The translations under genes and the position numbers were made by a program. A stretch of DNA of 11,411 nucleotides from a virus (lineage: Duplodnaviria > Heunggongvirae > Uroviricota > Caudoviricetes): IMG/VR virus record IMGVR_UViG_2713896907_000009, positions 1-11,411 of that record; one strand, given 5' to 3'. Each line of letters opens with the position of its first letter. Within the stretch, counting starts at the first letter, position 1. Positions 3,241 through 8,616 of this stretch are shown here, in pieces. The notes below the pieces were generated by a model. It did not search any database and was not told the origin of the DNA. It worked only from the letters and a program-made list of their open reading frames with translations.

Positions 3241-3317
3241 TTACCTCTGAGGTAATTAAAAACCACATAAGACATGAAATCAATAGAATTTAGAATATTT
3301 TATTACCCATCAGGTAA
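3241..3317 (-). promoter_or_regulatory. Leftward promoter flanked by two TTACC-N5-GGTAA palindromes (operator-like)
   Basis: Palindromes at 3241-3255 (TTACC TCTGA GGTAA) and 3303-3317 (TTACC CATCA GGTAA). On the minus strand: -35 TTGATT (plus 3283-3278), 17-bp spacer, -10 TTTAAT (plus 3260-3255). One palindrome is 18 nt upstream of the -35; the other abuts the -10 and includes the SD of the 2893-3237 gene. Confidence 0.45.
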
Positions 3318-3354
3318 TTATCGAGGCGTAAAAAAATGCGCTATCGCGCTGGTA

Positions 3355-4140
3355 TTACTTGATAAATCCTGCCGCCTTTCCCCGCCTGTATTCCTCCATC
3401 AGCCACTGCGCTGGTGTTATTCCCCCAAGGGTGGCGGCGTTAGGCATGCACCCGAAACTTCGCCCTGATGGATGGTAAACGTCTCTCCCTGTGTCCGGAG
3501 GTGTACTCATGGGCTCTGGCTTTGCCTGTATGCTGATCACCGGCTCGGGTATCTGCTGTCCGGAAGCCACCTTTTTCGCCCAATCATCGAGCAGCCTGCG
3601 CGCGTGTTTCTCAACCTCAATCTCGCTAAGCTGGCGCTGATACATTGCACGGCGGGTATCACATACGACCCAGTACATAACCGGATGCCGCCACGGGAAT
3701 CTTTCGGGACCACCAGGATATAAACTTTTTTCCTTGCTGTACCGGTGAAACTCCGCCATCACATCGTCAATGGTGACGCCAAGAACCATCTTGCTGTCTT
3801 TACACCACTTGATGAATTGCCCTGGCGACGGCCAGAACGGAGATTCACTGGCGCGGGCGTGGCGCATACCAGCAGAAACCTGTTCACGGGTTCGGATCCC
3901 CCCTTCGGCAAACGCAGCAATCCACTGCTGTTTTGCAGCAACTTCCTGCTCTGGCGTCTTCAGGTTGGTTACCACTGCCGCCGGAAACAGTTGTTTCAAC
4001 TGTTTGAAAAGGGCATCAACAAGCCTCTCTGCTGACATGTTCACCACGTTGTCATTGTTAGTGTACTGATGCTCATAACCTGACATGCGAGAAAGGGCTT
4101 CTCCGTCACGGTTTTGTATCGCGGTAAAAACGTTGTTCAC
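3355..4140 (-). CDS. Replication protein P-like (helicase loader, lambda P family)
   Basis: ORF 3355-4155; segments PFWPSPGQFIKWC, SLYPGGPERFPWRHPVMYWVV and QIPEPV match lambda P as I recall it (PFLPSPGQFVAWC, GLYPDAESYPWKSNAHYWLV, AIPEPV). Start placed at GTG 4140-4138 (GGGAGGA SD 6 nt upstream), overlapping the upstream stop as GTGA. Confidence 0.7.
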   Translation of the reverse strand: MNNVFTAIQNRDGEALSRMSGYEHQYTNNDNVVNMSAERLVDALFKQLKQLFPAAVVTNLKTPEQEVAAKQQWIAAFAEGGIRTREQVSAGMRHARASESPFWPSPGQFIKWCKDSKMVLGVTIDDVMAEFHRYSKEKSLYPGGPERFPWRHPVMYWVVCDTRRAMYQRQLSEIEVEKHARRLLDDWAKKVASGQQIPEPVISIQAKPEPMSTPPDTGRDVYHPSGRSFGCMPNAATLGGITPAQWLMEEYRRGKAAGFIK

Positions 4141-4976
4141 AAGAAATCCTCCCATGCTTCAGGGCTGTTCCAGTGCGGAACGTTGTTATCAGGTAATGTT
4201 GATTGCTTCTGTCTGCTAATCTGCAGCCGCCTTGCCAGCTTCTGCTCCCACTGTGCCTGATGGTATGCCTTACCCTCAGCCATCCAGTAAATTCTGAACT
4301 CTGCAAGTTCCTGTGCCGTTGGCAGACTGTCCAGGTAGATCCCCTGCAATGAGCTTTTCCGAAGAAAGTCATCTGATGGCTGCCATTGTTCATGCATGAC
4401 AAATTTGCCTAATTGCCCTGGCCCACCAGGAGGAACAAAGTTATTCATCACGGCGTTGTTTGCGCCGGGGTCATGAGGCACAGAATCCCCGGCTTTTGTC
4501 CTGCTCTCCCTCTCTTGGTTAAATGACTGGTTATATGACTGGTTCTGGATCCCGTTTTTGGGATCATTCAACATCCCGTTTTTGGGATCATTCAACATCC
4601 CGTTTTTGGGATCATTCAACATCCCGTTTTTGGGTATATTCCCGTTTTCGGGAACATTACCGTTTTCGGGTTCATTGCTCCATTCCCGGTTGCCTTTAAT
4701 GTTCCCGTTTTTGGTTATATTAAGAGAGAAAACCCGCACTCTTTTCGTCGCTCCCTTTCTCTCTCCGGTATCTGAAATAAGCCCCATTTTCATGAGCGAT
4801 ATAAGCCCGGCCTGTACGGTTTTTTTATTCAGGCAAGTGTCTTTAACGAGGCGTTCTATGCTGGGGTAGCAGAGGTTATATTCATCGGCTCTGTCAGCCA
4901 TCGAGAGCAGTATGAGCTTTAATGACGAGCTACCCGGATCTGTCTCCCAGGCCCAATCTGTTGCATGTCTGCTCAT
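4137..4976 (-). CDS. Replication initiator, O-like (N-terminal DNA-binding domain, Asn-rich repeat linker encoded by iterons, C-terminal domain)
   Basis: ORF 4137-4976, ATG 4976 with GGAG SD. Sits immediately upstream of and coupled to the P-like gene. Contains in-frame 8-aa repeats (PKNGMLND x3) encoded by 24-bp direct repeats, as lambda O contains ori. C-terminal region resembles DnaT/O-type replisome-organiser domains (from memory, unverified). Confidence 0.65.
   Translation of the reverse strand: MSRHATDWAWETDPGSSSLKLILLSMADRADEYNLCYPSIERLVKDTCLNKKTVQAGLISLMKMGLISDTGERKGATKRVRVFSLNITKNGNIKGNREWSNEPENGNVPENGNIPKNGMLNDPKNGMLNDPKNGMLNDPKNGIQNQSYNQSFNQERESRTKAGDSVPHDPGANNAVMNNFVPPGGPGQLGKFVMHEQWQPSDDFLRKSSLQGIYLDSLPTAQELAEFRIYWMAEGKAYHQAQWEQKLARRLQISRQKQSTLPDNNVPHWNSPEAWEDFL
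4547..4700. repeat. Iteron array: three perfect 24-bp direct repeats (4561-4632) flanked by degenerate copies; putative phage replication origin inside the O-like gene
   Basis: ggatcattcaacatcccgtttttg repeated exactly at 4561-4584, 4585-4608 and 4609-4632; partial or degenerate copies at 4547-4560 and 4633-4700. Each unit contains the inverted repeat GGGAT/ATCCC. Confidence 0.6.
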
Positions 4977-5026
4977 GATTAATCTCCGCTATCAGCTTGA
5001 ATGTTGTGGGGAGGAATTAATCATGA
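4973..5026. repeat. Inverted repeat (11-bp perfect arms, extendable to about 15 bp) bracketing the O-like start codon and SD
   Basis: tcatgattaat at 4973-4983 and its reverse complement attaatcatga at 5016-5026. The left arm contains the O-like ATG (4976-4974) and is adjacent to its GGAG SD. Confidence 0.5.
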
Positions 5027-5192
5027 TCTGCTTAATCTCTGCCCTGATGCGACGGTTTGATTCCATGGTGCACTCAACACAGTGTCCGTTGTAAACCCAG
5101 CGTTCACTGTCATGTCCGTGCTTACATGGTTTTCCGGTGTAGTAGCGTTTAAGTCCGCGCTTTGCGGCATCAATACGTGTAATGATTTCCAT
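4992..5192 (-). CDS. Small zinc-finger protein (66 aa), function unknown; occupies the position downstream of cro
   Basis: ORF 4992-5255; start assigned to internal ATG 5192 (MEIITRIDAAK...) because the N-terminal extension MIFFLCQHKITVIPILITGLT looks non-coding and runs into the intergenic terminator region. Product has C-x-H-x-H ... C-x2-C spacing (KPCKHGHDSERWVYNGHCVEC). Confidence 0.45.
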   Translation of the reverse strand: MEIITRIDAAKRGLKRYYTGKPCKHGHDSERWVYNGHCVECTMESNRRIRAEIKQIMINSSPQHSS

Positions 5193-5290
5193 GGTAAGCC
5201 CCGTTATTAGTATTGGGATTACGGTTATTTTGTGCTGACACAAAAAAAAGATCAACCAGATTTGGTTTTTTATTACCTTTGAGGTGCGAA

Positions 5291-5321
5291 TAGATATGAA
5301 AAGACCGCCGAGTGGCGGTCT
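5291..5321 (-). terminator. Putative intrinsic terminator downstream of the Cro-like gene (tR1-like position)
   Basis: Perfect 8-bp GC-rich stem agaccgcc / ggcggtct (5302-5309 and 5314-5321) with 4-nt loop; on the minus strand it is followed by TTTTCATATCT. The T-tract is short (4 T), so efficiency is uncertain. Confidence 0.4.
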
Positions 5322-5342
5322 ACAGAGGGTTGTGGCTGGATA

Positions 5343-5573
5343 TCATGAGTAGAAGAAGTATGCCAGTTCTGCTTTTGAGCGCAGCCATTGTCTTGTTTTA
5401 CAGGCTTTAAAAAGCCCATTCATCAATACCTTACCTGGCATTTTGCGCTTACCTGTTAAGTGAGTCTGGATATAGTGACTCGTCGTTCCGGCTTCCTGTG
5501 CGAAGGCTTCACGCTCATCTGGAGTAAGTGCAAGCCAGTGCTTTTTGAAATCGAAATGTCCGTTATCGCTCAT
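5343..5573 (-). CDS. Cro-like small HTH DNA-binding protein (76 aa)
   Basis: ORF 5343-5573, divergent from the repressor gene across an operator-containing region. Segment EAFAQEAGTTSHYIQTHLTGKRKMPGK resembles the HTH of Cro/YdaS-type proteins. SD is weak. Confidence 0.5.
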   Translation of the reverse strand: MSDNGHFDFKKHWLALTPDEREAFAQEAGTTSHYIQTHLTGKRKMPGKVLMNGLFKACKTRQWLRSKAELAYFFYS

Positions 5574-5608: not shown

Positions 5609-5672
5609 TTCACCCATAAGGTAACAAAAATCAAGGATAGTTACCTATGGGGTGCATTTACCTGTTGGGTAA
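5609..5672. promoter_or_regulatory. Divergent promoter/operator region between the Cro-like and repressor genes with three operator-like sites
   Basis: Sites at 5609-5623 (TCACC CATAA GGTAA), 5641-5655 (TTACC TATGG GGTGC) and 5658-5672 (TTACC TGTTG GGTAA, perfect) in an AT-rich 154-bp intergenic region; -35-like TTGATT on the minus strand. I could not place the -10 elements confidently. Confidence 0.5.
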
Positions 5673-5727: not shown

Positions 5728-6312
5728 ATGAAAAGTATCCAGGACGTCCGCAGGCAAAATCTCAACGACTTGATCGACCGTGAATTCAATGGTGTTCAGA
5801 CGCGGATGGCAGAAAAACTTGGAACTCAGGCAAATCTGGTAAACCGCTGGGCTCTTGGCAAGAAGGTTATCGGCGACCAGGTTGCGCGAAAAATTGAAGC
5901 TGCCGCCAATAAACCCCGTAACTGGCTTGATATCGATCGCTCGCTTTCTCAGGAAGGTTTTCAGCCTGTCGGACCAAGCGACATTGGTCAGCTGGCGGCT
6001 CACAACCTGGAACGCTGGATGAGCGAAAGCCGCGACCTTTCAACGCAGGGAAAACTTCACCGCGCATCCGGCGTCGCCCAGGTGACAATCAGCCGCCTGT
6101 TAAACAATGAGGTCAGCGTTTCCATTTCCACCCTGGAGAATGTTGCATCAGCATTCGGGCGTCACGGATATGAACTACTGATTCACCCACACGACCCTGC
6201 GACTATCAACTATGACCGCTCGCGCTACGCTTTGTTACCCGAAACCGAGAAAGCAAAGATCGAAAGTTACATTGAATTTGTCATCAACCAGAACGAAAAA
6301 AACAAACAATAA
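5728..6312 (+). CDS. Phage repressor-like protein with two tandem XRE-type HTH domains and no S24 peptidase domain
   Basis: ORF 5728-6312. HTH 1 about aa 25-70 (VQTRMAEKLGTQANLVNRWALGKK...); HTH 2 about aa 105-150 (LHRASGVAQVTISRLLNNEVSVSISTLENVASAF). C-terminus has no Ser/Lys dyad or Ala-Gly cleavage context. Flanked on both sides by TTACC-N5-GGTAA sites. Confidence 0.65.
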   Translation: MKSIQDVRRQNLNDLIDREFNGVQTRMAEKLGTQANLVNRWALGKKVIGDQVARKIEAAANKPRNWLDIDRSLSQEGFQPVGPSDIGQLAAHNLERWMSESRDLSTQGKLHRASGVAQVTISRLLNNEVSVSISTLENVASAFGRHGYELLIHPHDPATINYDRSRYALLPETEKAKIESYIEFVINQNEKNKQ

Positions 6313-6332
6313 AATCATATTTTTCAGTAAGT

Positions 6333-6358
6333 AAGCCGCCTTCTGGCGGCTTTTTTAT
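6333..6358 (+). terminator. Rho-independent terminator downstream of the repressor gene
   Basis: Perfect 8-bp stem aagccgcc / ggcggctt (6333-6340 and 6345-6352), 4-nt loop ttct, followed by a T-tract (TTTTTTATT). Confidence 0.7.
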
Positions 6359-6368
6359 TGCCTATTTG

Positions 6369-6446
6369 ATTACCTATCGGGTAATTTTTTTAACTCATAT
6401 CTATTGACATCAAACCAAATACGCATAATCATTACCTAAACGGTAA
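6369..6446 (+). promoter_or_regulatory. Rightward early promoter (PL-like) flanked by two TTACC-N5-GGTAA operator-like palindromes
   Basis: Sites at 6369-6385 (ATTACC TATCG GGTAAT) and 6432-6446 (TTACC TAAAC GGTAA), plus a GGTAA half-site at 6456-6460 that overlaps the SD of the first gene. Consensus -35 TTGACA at 6404-6409; the best -10 candidate CATAAT (6424-6429) gives a short 14-bp spacer, so the exact -10 is uncertain. Confidence 0.5.
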
Positions 6447-6465: not shown

Positions 6466-6618
6466 ATGCAGTGGAAAATCATCAACGGTTGGTACTGCGT
6501 TACTGCATGCGGATTCATGAGCTGGAAGTTCCGCACCTTACAGGAAGGTATTAAGTGGGCTTTCGTCAGCAAAGAAGCTCGCGATGTGGCCAACGATAAC
6601 GAGATATGGGAGGGCTGA
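6466..6618 (+). CDS. Small Trp-rich protein (50 aa), first gene of the rightward early operon; unknown function
   Basis: Not in the supplied ORF track (below its size cut-off). ATG 6466 preceded by GAGG at about 9 nt; my own translation is MQWKIINGWYCVTACGFMSWKFRTLQEGIKWAFVSKEARDVANDNEIWEG. Its stop is 2 nt before the next gene's ATG and its 3-prime end encodes that gene's SD (GGGAGGG). Confidence 0.4.
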   Translation: MQWKIINGWYCVTACGFMSWKFRTLQEGIKWAFVSKEARDVANDNEIWEG

Positions 6619-6620
6619 TA

Positions 6621-6920
6621 ATGAACGTTAATCAGCAGAAAAATCTTCAAAAAATCATGCTGGCATTCGACAAGGACTACCGCCTGTCAGAACAGCTATA
6701 TGACCGACAAGTTGAACTGATTGAGAGCATCCGACTTCATCAACTGTCCTCAACTTTCGACGTTGTAACAGGCAAAGGCGTTCGTCAGGAAGTGCTGGAG
6801 GCTGCTAAAGACAGCCCTGAGTTCGAAGAACTGATGGATGCCTACCGGCGCGAGGCAATGGCAATTATAGCGCGCTGGGATCTGGCGGATCAGCTTGATG
6901 GGCAGAGGGACGCGGCATGA
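6621..6920 (+). CDS. Hypothetical phage protein (99 aa) immediately upstream of exo/bet
   Basis: ORF-track frame 6606-6920; start placed at ATG 6621 (MNVNQQ...) with GGGAGGG SD at 6 nt. Stop overlaps the exonuclease ATG (ATGA). No family recognised. Confidence 0.6.
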   Translation: MNVNQQKNLQKIMLAFDKDYRLSEQLYDRQVELIESIRLHQLSSTFDVVTGKGVRQEVLEAAKDSPEFEELMDAYRREAMAIIARWDLADQLDGQRDAA

Positions 6921-7738
6921 AACCGGGAATTTATTTCGACATCAGCAACGAAGACTACCACGCAGGTGACGGCGTGAGTAAGTCGCAACTGGACATGGTT
7001 GCCAAGAATCCGGCGCTTCTTAAATGGGTTCAGGCAGCACCAGAAGACGAAGAGAAAAAGTCTGCACTGGATATGGGAACCGCATTGCACTGCCTGCTTC
7101 TGGAACCTGGAGAATTCGACAAACGCTTCATCGTTTCACCGAAATTCGATCGTCGGACAAAACAAGGTAAAGCTGACGAAGAAGCATTTCTTCGTGATGT
7201 GGCGGATATGGGTATTACGGTACTTGATGTCGAGCAGTGGCGAAAACTGGAGCTGATGCGTGATAGCGCAATGGCTCATCCGGCGGCACGCTGGATGTTG
7301 GAAGCACCTGGTTACTGCGAAGCATCAATGTACTGGAACGATGAAGAGACGGGTGAGTTGTGCCGAATTCGTCCAGACAAATGGCTGAACGAGCACAACG
7401 TGATCGTCGACGTGAAAAAGGTTGCAGATATGGACCGTTTTGCACGCCACATCGAGGAATTCCGCTACCACGTGCAGGACGCAATGTACCGCGAAGGCGC
7501 AATGAGGGTTACTGGTCAGCCGCATGGTTTTTTCTTTCTTGCCGTGAGCGAAAGCATTGATTGTGGTCGGTATCCGGTACGCGTGTTCGAGCTGGATGCG
7601 CCGGATGTCGATGCCGGGCACGCTCTGTTCCGCCGGGATCTGAATACCTATCACGAATGCCGCATCAACGATGAGTGGGGCGGAGTGGAAATTATTAAAC
7701 GCCCTGACTGGGCACGTAAACAGGATATGTACGTATGA
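6917..7738 (+). CDS. PD-(D/E)XK family exonuclease (phage recombination exonuclease, RecB-like nuclease fold)
   Basis: ORF 6917-7738. Motifs in order: IRPDKW (D), VIVDVKK (D-x-K), QDAMYREG (QxxxY), the arrangement of RecB/Cas4-type PD-(D/E)XK nucleases. Coupled (ATGA) to the downstream Bet-like gene. Confidence 0.7.
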   Translation: MKPGIYFDISNEDYHAGDGVSKSQLDMVAKNPALLKWVQAAPEDEEKKSALDMGTALHCLLLEPGEFDKRFIVSPKFDRRTKQGKADEEAFLRDVADMGITVLDVEQWRKLELMRDSAMAHPAARWMLEAPGYCEASMYWNDEETGELCRIRPDKWLNEHNVIVDVKKVADMDRFARHIEEFRYHVQDAMYREGAMRVTGQPHGFFFLAVSESIDCGRYPVRVFELDAPDVDAGHALFRRDLNTYHECRINDEWGGVEIIKRPDWARKQDMYV

Positions 7739-8616
7739 GCAATGATATCGCAATCACATCACAACCTGGCGCAACTGTAGGTACTGCTGCGGCAATCTTC
7801 AGCCCGGAGGGCATGAATCAACTGGTGCGTTTCGCGGAGTTGATGTCACAAAGCAAAGCGACTGTACCGAAACATCTTGAAGGCAAACCTGCCGATTGCC
7901 TGGCGGTGACCATGCAGGCGGCACAGTGGGGAATGAACCCGTTCGCCGTGGCGCAGAAAACGCATGTGGTAAACGGAACGTTAGGCTACGAAGCACAGTT
8001 GGTAAACGCGGTCGTATCCTCTTCCAGCCTGCTGGCGACACGCCTGAATTATCGCTGGAGCGGTGACTGGTCGAATGTTAACGGCAAAACAGATAAATCA
8101 CCGAATCTGACGGTAACTGTGTCAGCAGTTCTTAAAGGAGAAGCAGAACCACGTGAGCTTACCATCAGTATGGCGCAAGCCGGAGTGCGTAACTCTCCAT
8201 TGTGGGAACAGGATCCGCGCCAGCAGCTTGCCTATCTTTGCACGAAACGATGGGCTCGCCTGCACGCTCCTGATGTACTTCTCGGTGTTTACACCCCTGA
8301 AGAATTACAGGAAACGGCACCGCGCGTTGAGCGAGACATTACTCCGCAAACAACTACGGCTGCGGGAATGAATAGTCTGATCAACGCTAAAACAGTGAAA
8401 AAGCCTGATGAGCAAACGCGTAAAGCGGATAGCCGTGATCCAGAAGAAATGCTGATGGCCTTTACCAGCGCAGCAATGAATTACAGCACTGTCTCCGAAC
8501 TGGATAAGGCTTACAAATACATTGCACAAAAACTTTCAGATGATGACGAACTGCTGGCAAAAGCCACCGACGTTTACAGCGTTCGTCGGGAAGAATTAAA
8601 CGAAACATCTATGTAA
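7735..8616 (+). CDS. Single-strand annealing protein, Bet/RecT (Red-beta) family
   Basis: ORF 7735-8616. Segments GMNPFAVAQKTHVV, PLWEQDPRQQLAYLCTKRWARL and ERDITP parallel lambda Bet as I recall it (GLNPWTKEIYAF, PWQSHPKRMLRHKAMIQCARL, ERDITP). Sits directly downstream of a nuclease, as in exo/bet and recE/recT pairs. Confidence 0.75.
   Translation: MSNDIAITSQPGATVGTAAAIFSPEGMNQLVRFAELMSQSKATVPKHLEGKPADCLAVTMQAAQWGMNPFAVAQKTHVVNGTLGYEAQLVNAVVSSSSLLATRLNYRWSGDWSNVNGKTDKSPNLTVTVSAVLKGEAEPRELTISMAQAGVRNSPLWEQDPRQQLAYLCTKRWARLHAPDVLLGVYTPEELQETAPRVERDITPQTTTAAGMNSLINAKTVKKPDEQTRKADSRDPEEMLMAFTSAAMNYSTVSELDKAYKYIAQKLSDDDELLAKATDVYSVRREELNETSM

Follow-up and report, generated by a model that had tools for sequence, protein, structure and literature searches.

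A putative conserved terminator that follows the Cro-like gene in a phiV10/epsilon15-type phage, with a candidate operator and a probable promoter downstream

Analysis of the window, meaning here the whole stretch of 11,411 nucleotides that was analysed (IMG/VR record IMGVR_UViG_2713896907_000009), identified a hairpin just after the Cro-like gene as a putative, conserved transcription terminator. An imperfect site next to it belongs, by its sequence, to the over-represented repressor-operator family of the window and is a candidate Rep site. Beyond this site lies a stretch, here called P_X, that is probably a sigma-70-type promoter for the small, O-like and P-like genes. The most economical explanation of this layout, and the one that we lean towards with some reserve, is a series of terminator-insulated, repressor-controlled units and not a single operon that depends on antitermination to be opened. 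With this explanation, the apparent puzzle of a tR1-like terminator without an antiterminator would become an ordinary and testable architecture, namely a monocistronic cro and a separate replication promoter.

The window covers the immunity and replication region of a podovirus of the phiV10/epsilon15 type, genus Uetakevirus. It is about 98.5% identical to phiV10, and the segment 4900-5750 shows 98.5-98.9% identity to phiV10, PAS61 and the O157 typing phages 9 and 10. The minus strand carries the early-right genes, and the plus strand the repressor gene (Table 1). The Cro-like protein is 100% identical to phiV10 gp41. The Zn-ribbon-like protein was considered as a cII analogue and rejected; its domain is widespread in unrelated phages, lytic ones included. 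The same domain is sometimes labelled endonuclease VII, a label that is uninformative on the function of the small gene.

Table 1. Features of the region in order of position in the window; regulatory assignments are predictions.
Feature	Position	Strand	Remarks
Third operator-flanked promoter region	3241-3317	minus	After the P-like gene; two perfect operators 62 bp apart
Perfect operators after the P-like gene (two)	3241-3255, 3303-3317		Motif matches, 62 bp apart
P-like gene	3355-4155	minus	Lambda-P-family loader
O-like initiator gene	4137-4976	minus	HTH_36 and DnaT domains
Zn-ribbon-like ORF, 66 aa	4992-5192	minus	ATG at 5192; phiV10 gp42/epsilon15 gp40 family; first gene downstream of the hairpin
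Operator half-site TAACC	5223-5227	minus	TTACC in most relatives; first T is the last T of the -10
P_X -10 hexamer CAAAAT	5227-5232	minus	AAAAT invariant in 13/13 lineages
P_X spacer, T-rich, 17 nt	5233-5249	minus	Contains the mosaic junction with TL-2011b-type phages
P_X -35 hexamer TTGATC	5250-5255	minus	Contains a GATC site; GGTTGAT invariant in 13/13 lineages
A-tract (minus strand TAAAAAA) and palindrome AACCA-N4-TGGTT over the -35	5254-5272		wwCCrwwTnyGGTT in all lineages
Imperfect operator by the hairpin	5273-5287		Plus strand TTACCTTTGAGGTGC; minus strand GCACC-N5-GGTAA
Terminator tail UUUCAUAUCUAUUC	5288-5301	minus	Last stem U and tail give UUUU, then interrupted U residues
Terminator hairpin	5302-5321	minus	8-bp stem AGACCGCC/GGCGGTCT, loop ACTC; folding, covariation, phiV10 annotation
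Linker from cro stop to hairpin, 21 nt	5322-5342	minus	C-rich, G-poor (sequence)
Cro-like gene, 76 aa, HTH	5343-5573	minus	TGA stop 5345-5343; phrog_35 (transcriptional repressor), E = 5.6e-13
Weak operator-like site inside cro	5449-5463		Motif match
pR, upstream of the Cro-like gene	~5627-5599	minus	pR-like hexamers TTGTTA-17-TATTAT
OR operators (three)	5610-5624, 5641-5655, 5658-5672		Motif matches
Two-HTH repressor gene	5728-6312	plus	Full-length homologue of SPC32H Rep, PDB 5D50, E = 4e-42
pL module	6333-6446	plus	Terminator, operator 6370-6384, 19 nt, TTGACA, 17 nt, AATCAT over operator 6432-6446
Repressor-gene terminator	6333-6352	plus	Second perfect GC-rich hairpin in the window
OL/pL operators (two)	6370-6384, 6432-6446		Motif matches

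Read on the minus strand from 5321 to 5302, the hairpin is AGACCGCC-ACTC-GGCGGTCT, followed by TTTCATATCT. Its perfect 8-bp stem consists of six G-C and two A-T pairs and closes a loop of 4 nt, and the gap between the Cro-like TGA stop and the hairpin start is 21 nt. The predicted RNA has a ΔG of -15 kcal/mol (z = -4.5), and none of 200 shuffles folded as well. The U-rich tract UUUUCAUAUCU stands directly 3' of the stem on the minus strand. On the plus strand no T-run was found beyond the stem, where ACAGAGGG stands instead; the hairpin is terminator-like in the cro direction only. A d'Aubenton-Carafa-type terminator score (d), computed with ViennaRNA energies, gave +16.8. The first-pass annotation had described a perfect 8-bp GC stem with a short T-run after it on the minus strand, in the position of lambda tR1. 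Sequence and folding bear out this description, with the coordinates of the stem exact and the T-run present as a UUUU-containing tail, and the element does sit between the Cro-like gene and the replication genes. The terminator prediction that had been proposed as a check thus returned a terminator-like result on folding energy, z-score and d-score alike.

Perfect hairpins of at least 8 bp with at least six G-C pairs are rare in the window. Only two occur in the 11.4 kb, at 5302-5321 and 6333-6352, and 500 dinucleotide shuffles gave a mean of 0.17 such hairpins, with one or more in 12% of the shuffles. The two share the core CCGCC-N4-GGCGG, the second being the repressor-gene terminator. The GenBank record of phiV10 (DQ126339.2) labels the same element 'putative rho-independent terminator' at 33078-33100, between PhiV10p41 and PhiV10p42; the hairpin as a terminator is therefore not new. 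The U-tract is short (UUUU, then C), and the efficiency of termination is therefore uncertain and probably below 100%. On the opposite strand, a match at 5319-5346 (TCTACA-16-TATCAT) was considered as a pRE-like antisense promoter and set aside, its hexamers, judged by eye, not being kept in Tyrion or epsilon15.

The region downstream of cro was gathered from 98 loci, 80 of them IMG/VR contigs with an identical Cro. The other loci came from GenBank phages (Cro 58-84% identical) and from prophages of Citrobacter, Kluyvera, Buttiauxella, Pseudocitrobacter, Scandinavium, Erwinia and Klebsiella. Every lineage collected has a G+C-rich hairpin 20-35 nt past the cro stop. Among these relatives the loops are free in sequence and in length (3-7 nt), the forms seen being ACTC, ATCC, ACCC, ACCT, TTCT, TCAT, GCCT, TCCCC, TCATT, ACCCCCA and AACCACA. 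The six inner stem pairs are kept in 18 distinct variants; changes at the inner pairs include A-U to G-U to G-C at one position and G-C to A-U in Scandinavium, and several lineages show a C-G to U-G change in the stem. MAFFT alone misregisters the 5' arms when loop lengths differ, and for this reason covariation was counted on a hand-registered alignment with N-padded loops, a procedure that leans towards structure. Of the cells in this alignment 89.6% pair, and both sides differ in four of the eight pairs that were scored. The observed covariation score was not reached in any of 500 shuffles, and slid registers collapsed. The compensatory changes, together with the free loop, indicate that the hairpin is under selection as an RNA structure rather than as a DNA recognition sequence.

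Comparison of the sequences that follow the stem revealed a split between lineages. The tail is identical in the E. coli, Enterobacter and Erwinia lineages (d = +16.8), and Pseudocitrobacter has the same tail offset by one C, with a score just under zero (d = -7.6). Elsewhere the scores are positive, with +32 in Buttiauxella and +5 in Scandinavium. In the epsilon15/SPN1S/Citrobacter lineage the hairpin is kept and the U-tract is replaced by the C-rich tail UCCUUCCUGC; the Klebsiella lineage likewise keeps the hairpin with the C-rich tail UCCCGCCUCU, and Kluyvera keeps it without a U-tract. Scores in these U-less lineages range from -11 to -42, and a terminator scan of epsilon15 called none after cro. 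Retention of the hairpin without a U-tract means that canonical intrinsic termination cannot be its whole conserved function. In the 78 nt past the cro stop of the window the C/G ratio on the transcribed strand is 2.0, which falls in the top ~1% of 78-nt windows. The ratio is 2.4-3.1 in the U-less lineages and 0.75 in Buttiauxella, which has the best intrinsic terminator. From this inverse pattern of U-tract and C-richness, it is possible that Rho contributes or substitutes; we take this as a lead from a small and phylogenetically non-independent sample. The split between a hairpin with a U-tract and a hairpin in C-rich RNA may help in studying how modes of termination interchange.

A search with the motif TTACCT-N4-GGTRM found 14 strand matches (nine sites) in the window against 0.31 expected. 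The matches include the operators at OR, at OL/pL and after the P-like gene (Table 1). The weak match inside cro is absent from other lineages and probably due to chance. TTACC/GGTAA half-sites are used by all relatives, epsilon15, SPN1S and SPC32H-type phages among them, and operator pairs lie exactly 62 bp apart at pL and past the replication genes in most relatives. The site next to the hairpin had been placed at 5272-5286 in the first-pass annotation and called degenerate. The site is real and its actual position is one base to the right; it is imperfect with respect to TTACC-N5-GGTAA and yet less degenerate than described, for one half is perfect (GGTAA) and the variant half (GCACC) matches a bona fide OR site, the half-site GGTGC being common to it and to the middle OR site at 5641-5655. 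Most relatives have an imperfect site xxACC-N5-GGTAA at the equivalent place after cro, and the GGTAA half does not vary. Four lineages (BUCT554, Erwinia, Buttiauxella and Scandinavium) keep GGTAA and its position but have a distal half that can hardly be recognised. In the epsilon15 record repressor-binding sites are annotated at OL and after the replication gene, and none after cro.

The distance from this operator to the -35-like hexamer of P_X is exactly 17 nt in all 23 representatives, and in the window the operator is centred at about -60 relative to the candidate promoter. The minus strand reads GGTAA-TAAAAAACCAAATCTGG-TTGATC-TTTTTTTTGTGTCAGCA-CAAAAT-AACC, in which 17 nt separate an operator half-site from the -35-like hexamer, a spacer of 17 nt separates this hexamer from the -10-like one, and an operator-like half-site comes last. 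The Cro proteins of the 13 aligned lineages are only 57-84% identical, and from the cro stop to the following start codon these lineages share only three invariant blocks, GGTAA, GGTTGAT and AAAAT, single stem columns of the hairpin aside. The sole -35 variant seen, TTGATA, is nearer to the consensus, and the -10 hexamer did not vary among the inspected loci of the E. coli type. In the 23 representatives the spacer has a length of 15-17 nt and is variable in sequence; tract-length variants (T7-T9) among E. coli loci imply a spacer of up to 18 nt. In TL-2011b, ZX5 and HEMP4-type phages megablast homology ends at 5250, the edge of the -35, and the spacer and the downstream genes differ; CAAAAT recurs in these phages at the correct distance beyond the junction. 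The pattern TTGATM-N15-17-VAAAAT occurs once in the window. At the position of the downstream half-site BUCT554 has a near-complete operator, TTACCGTAATAGTAA. The register of -10 and TTACC is identical to that of pL, both in the window and in epsilon15.

Invariant hexamers, a variable spacer, a mosaic junction within the spacer and the pL-like register are the reasons for reading 5255-5227 as a promoter of the sigma-70 type. The hexamers match the sigma-70 consensus at 8 of 12 positions, with the A at -11 and the T at -7 present, and a promoter scan with a threshold of 9/12 did not call P_X. The predicted start of transcription from P_X lies near 5220, which leaves about 28 nt to the ATG at 5192. 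The downstream operator of P_X is a half-site only and is mismatched in the window (TAACC), and the distance between the two operators is 58-60 bp, against 62 bp at pL and after the P-like gene; owing to this distance, tight repression of P_X by a tetramer is uncertain. Another candidate, TCTATT-16-TAAAAA with the operator in its spacer, was considered by analogy with pR and with 3324-3297; judged by eye it has a poor, unconserved -35 and lacks the T at -7, and it is unlikely. The 11-mer TCATATCTATT, shared with the region upstream of pL, carries no weight alone, because tens of exact 11-mer repeats are estimated by chance in 11.4 kb.

The first-pass annotation had read part of the same segment as a weak AT-rich hairpin flanked by A8 and T6 tracts. 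The sequence has both tracts (A8 at 5242-5249, T6 at 5266-5271) and, at 5254-5267, the palindrome AACCAGATTTGGTT. As an RNA the palindrome is at chance level (ΔG -4 kcal/mol, z = -0.8, with 42 of 200 shuffles folding as well), and on this z-score the RNA hairpin was rejected and the segment re-read as a putative -35, spacer and A-tract.

The opposite arm of the switch has a comparable layout. Its pL reads TTGACA-17-AATCAT/TACCTAAACGGTAA, with the last T of the -10 being the first T of TTACC, and the geometry of the pL module is also found in epsilon15. As judged from the sequence, the two arms look symmetrical, each having a regulator gene, a near-identical terminator and an operator-flanked promoter. 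The third region, which contains promoter-like hexamers, comes after the P-like gene and after a weak hairpin that has a T7 run. The 62-bp operator pair after the replication genes is present in all or most relatives, and one site after the P-like gene is annotated as repressor-binding in the epsilon15 record. The paper on ZX5 names predicted PL and PR promoters only and does not mention a terminator. PMC9638917 describes SPC32H Rep as a DNA-binding tetramer.

These elements can be assembled into a tentative mechanism. pR would transcribe a monocistronic cro message that ends largely at the intrinsic terminator formed by 5321-5302 and its UUUU tail. About 50 bp past the hairpin P_X, as a sigma-70-type promoter, would start transcription anew near the predicted site and read into the Zn-ribbon gene, the O-like gene and the P-like gene. 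In a lysogen the SPC32H-type tetrameric repressor could keep P_X off, because the layout is like that of pL, with an upstream operator at about -60 and a half-site over -10/+1; occupancy of the imperfect site by the repressor is thus predicted from this layout. The terminator would shield P_X and the replication genes against read-through from pR and would set the dosage of Cro independently. The cro side would in this way mirror the opposite arm, in which the repressor gene is followed by a near-identical terminator and the operator-flanked pL.

The hairpin of lambda tR1 is bracketed by C-rich RNA (rutA-boxB-rutB), and termination at tR1 depends on Rho and is overcome by N, which acts at nutR. 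Searches for comparable elements in the window gave negative results. No boxA-like sequence was found near pR, pL or the hairpin, with fewer matches than expected by chance, and no boxB- or nut-like element was found upstream of the hairpin. With 21 nt from the cro stop to the hairpin and a pR leader of about 20 nt, a nut site would not fit. The whole window, scanned with Rfam (E ≤ 1), gave only three chance-level matches, none of them at 5190-5345; the match to RyhB is simply the repressor-gene terminator. The two small early-left ORFs (6466-6618, 6606-6920) match PHROGs whose function is unknown, and neither a Pfam match nor an Arg-rich N-terminus was found in them. No two-stem-loop RNA of the HK022 put type was found after pR, where there is a single hairpin with its own U-tail, a short pR leader and no Rfam match. 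The statement of the first-pass annotation that no N-like antiterminator is recognisable thus agrees with Pfam, PHROGs and the inspection of the early-left ORFs for Arg-rich motifs. No support was obtained for the antitermination control of entry into the O-like and P-like genes that it implies, in view of the missing nut, boxA, N and Rfam matches and of the conserved promoter candidate downstream, which would make antitermination unnecessary and offer a simpler route to expression of the replication genes.

Several other explanations of the hairpin and its surroundings were weighed. The perfect DNA palindrome adjoins operators, and the GC-rich inverted repeat might on this ground be a double-stranded DNA site bound by a protein and not an RNA element. 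This is hardly credible, considering that the spacing of the arms is variable (3-7 nt), that compensatory and G-U-type changes keep the RNA pairing and not a DNA recognition sequence, and that the hairpin resembles the repressor-gene terminator. The hairpin could instead act in RNA with a conserved role in protection or processing of the cro-mRNA 3' end, or as a pause or roadblock, and not in termination as such. Persistence of stem covariation without a U-tract and the C-rich flanks are consistent with such a role, which we regard as quite unlikely given that the window and most lineages have a proximal U-run and pass the terminator score. Where the U-tract is missing, Rho or nucleases might make 3' ends that are then trimmed back to the hairpin; a 3'-end role and termination are not mutually exclusive.

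A true analogue of tR1, perhaps Rho-assisted and overcome by a dedicated factor or RNA element for antitermination that has escaped recognition, would account for a map position identical to that of lambda tR1 and for the 78 nt of C-rich, G-poor sequence on both sides of the hairpin, which recall lambda rutA-boxB-rutB. The higher C-richness of the U-less lineages, as opposed to the lineage with the strongest intrinsic terminator, points the same way, and the two early-left ORFs could be considered as sources of a factor. We nevertheless judge this explanation very unlikely in the face of the negative searches for boxA/boxB-like elements, for an Arg-rich N-like protein and for Pfam or Rfam matches, the lack of room upstream, and a conserved downstream promoter that would remove the need for antitermination. 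It is also conceivable that the hairpin is a leaky attenuator only. The replication genes would then be expressed mainly by constitutive read-through from pR with a fixed ratio of Cro to replication proteins, and TTGATC/CAAAAT would be, for example, a protein-binding or architectural site. A short and interrupted U-tract that probably terminates fewer than all transcripts, the sub-threshold match of P_X to the consensus, and a conserved palindrome and GATC site over the -35 that could serve another role all speak for a leaky attenuator. However, invariant hexamers at promoter spacing around a free spacer with a mosaic junction are a classic promoter signature, the geometry of P_X copies that of pL, and a leaky attenuator offers no evident use for an operator beyond the terminator; on balance we find this explanation rather unlikely.

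The serial arrangement of terminator-insulated units can be carried further, to a Uetakevirus early programme that runs wholly without processive antitermination in the units pR-cro, P_X-replication and the third module, each begun anew at an operator-flanked promoter, with the imperfect -60 site as a timing device instead of a plain site of repression and with a Rho-dependent stop in the U-less lineages. We consider this extension unlikely as a whole. The timing device could work, for example, through modulation by Cro or Rep at a class-I-like position, and the U-less hairpin of epsilon15 and Klebsiella in C-rich RNA would be a Rho-dependent stop like lambda tR1. Irrespective of this extension, the analysis defines a conserved operator-promoter-operator module and adds two putative elements, an operator and a promoter, for phiV10/epsilon15-type prophages of E. 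coli, Salmonella, Klebsiella and Enterobacter. The downstream operator and promoter appear to be unannotated in the phiV10 and epsilon15 records and are ordinary in kind. To a specialist in phage regulation the findings will be unsurprising; they describe ordinary biology.

The phiV10 terminator is the same element, with stem and tail identical and with the loop ATCC in phiV10 against ACTC in the window; the phiV10 record annotates the hairpin only and leaves the operator and the promoter-like element downstream without annotation. The full-length repressor homologue and the TTACC/GGTAA half-sites are shared with the SPC32H Rep-operator system (PDB 5D50, 5D4Z). Lambda tR1/nutR, between cro and cII, has the same map position, and in both phages the hairpin is flanked by C-rich, G-poor RNA. 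Unlike lambda tR1, the window has a canonical-looking intrinsic terminator and a conserved candidate promoter downstream, and it has neither boxA/boxB nor an N homologue. The cro side of the window resembles lambda t_imm/pL and the phage's own 6333-6446, where a regulator gene and a terminator are again followed by an operator-flanked early promoter in the same direction. Compared with the pL module of the same phage, the cro-side module has degenerate operators, a gap of 17 nt instead of 19 nt and operators 58-60 bp instead of 62 bp apart, and it shares with pL the hairpin core, the upstream operator and the overlap of -10 and operator.

Comparison of the window with the regions after cro in relatives (loci L003, L004, L007-L009, L091, L092, L094, L095 and L098) revealed an inverse relation between the quality of the U-tract that follows the hairpin and the richness in C over G of the 78 nt after cro. 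The C/G ratio of these 78 nt was found to be 2.4-3.1 in the lineages that lack a U-tract and 0.75 in the one whose intrinsic terminator is best. The comparison hints that intrinsic and Rho-dependent termination may interchange. Two IMG/VR contigs run into homopolymer junk and end precisely where the hairpin lies, as if assembly or sequencing had broken off at the GC stem. Another contig, of 408 bp and 0.75x coverage and labelled Corallococcus exercitus, carries a cro that is 100% identical and is probably contamination (loci concerned by these remarks on contig quality: L035, L077 and L090).

Analysis of the region past the P-like gene identified a hairpin, a T-run and a pair of repressor operators. 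The operators are spaced 62 bp apart, equal to the spacing of the pL pair, and this 62-bp pair is kept in all relatives. Promoter-like hexamers (TCGATA-16-TAAAAT and also TTGATT-17-TTTAAT) are flanked or overlapped by the operators; the Shine-Dalgarno sequence of the DUF1064 gene lies under the second of them.

Features downstream of the P-like gene, in window coordinates
Feature	Position	Strand	Location
Weak 4-bp hairpin, then T7 run	within 3241-3355	minus	downstream of P-like gene
Two perfect operators	3303-3317 and 3241-3255	minus-strand region 3241-3355	past the hairpin and T7 run

Among other sites of operator-like sequence, TTACCTGTTAAGTGA at 5449-5463 lies within the cro coding sequence, occurs in the E. 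coli lineage only and is probably due to chance. At P_X, the proposed minus-strand promoter ahead of the small, O-like and P-like genes, phiV10-type phages meet TL-2011b-type phages at a mosaic junction (window 5250; loci L006 and L084) that coincides exactly with the -35 hexamer and spacer; the -35 hexamer is on the immunity module and the -10 hexamer on the replication module. A palindrome, AACCA-N4-TGGTT (5254-5267), overlaps the -35 hexamer, is kept as wwCCrwwTnyGGTT in all lineages and could be a site for a second protein, e.g. Cro. The pL spacer (6412-6423) holds AAACCAAATACG, which resembles this palindrome. The conserved -35 hexamer TTGATC also contains a GATC (Dam) site at 5250-5253. 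An MT-A70-family adenine methylase is encoded by the phage (9304-9966); GATC is neither over- nor under-represented across the window (36 sites against 43 expected).

A weak Rfam match to RyhB at 6300-6358 (24.5 bits, well under the gathering score) was rejected as a RyhB-like sRNA, the match consisting only of the repressor-gene terminator hairpin and its U-tail. The terminator-like sites flagged by the terminator scan at 4523-4720 are false; this part of the O-like gene holds arrayed direct repeats of 24 bp (three copies of TGGGATCATTCAACATCCCGTTTT) and related CCCGTTTTCGGG units, presumably origin iterons. The gene that occupies the cII position (4992-5192) encodes a 66-aa protein with a Zn-ribbon-like motif, YYTGKPCxxGH...CxxC. 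The domain of this protein, which some annotations call endonuclease VII or HNH, was found in about 130 phage records, including those of lytic Vibrio, Xanthomonas and Pseudomonas phages. The exonuclease (6917-7738) and the RecT-like protein (7735-8616) are encoded by two separate ORFs in the window, whereas the phiV10 record (L001 7518-9278) is annotated with one RecET fusion CDS.
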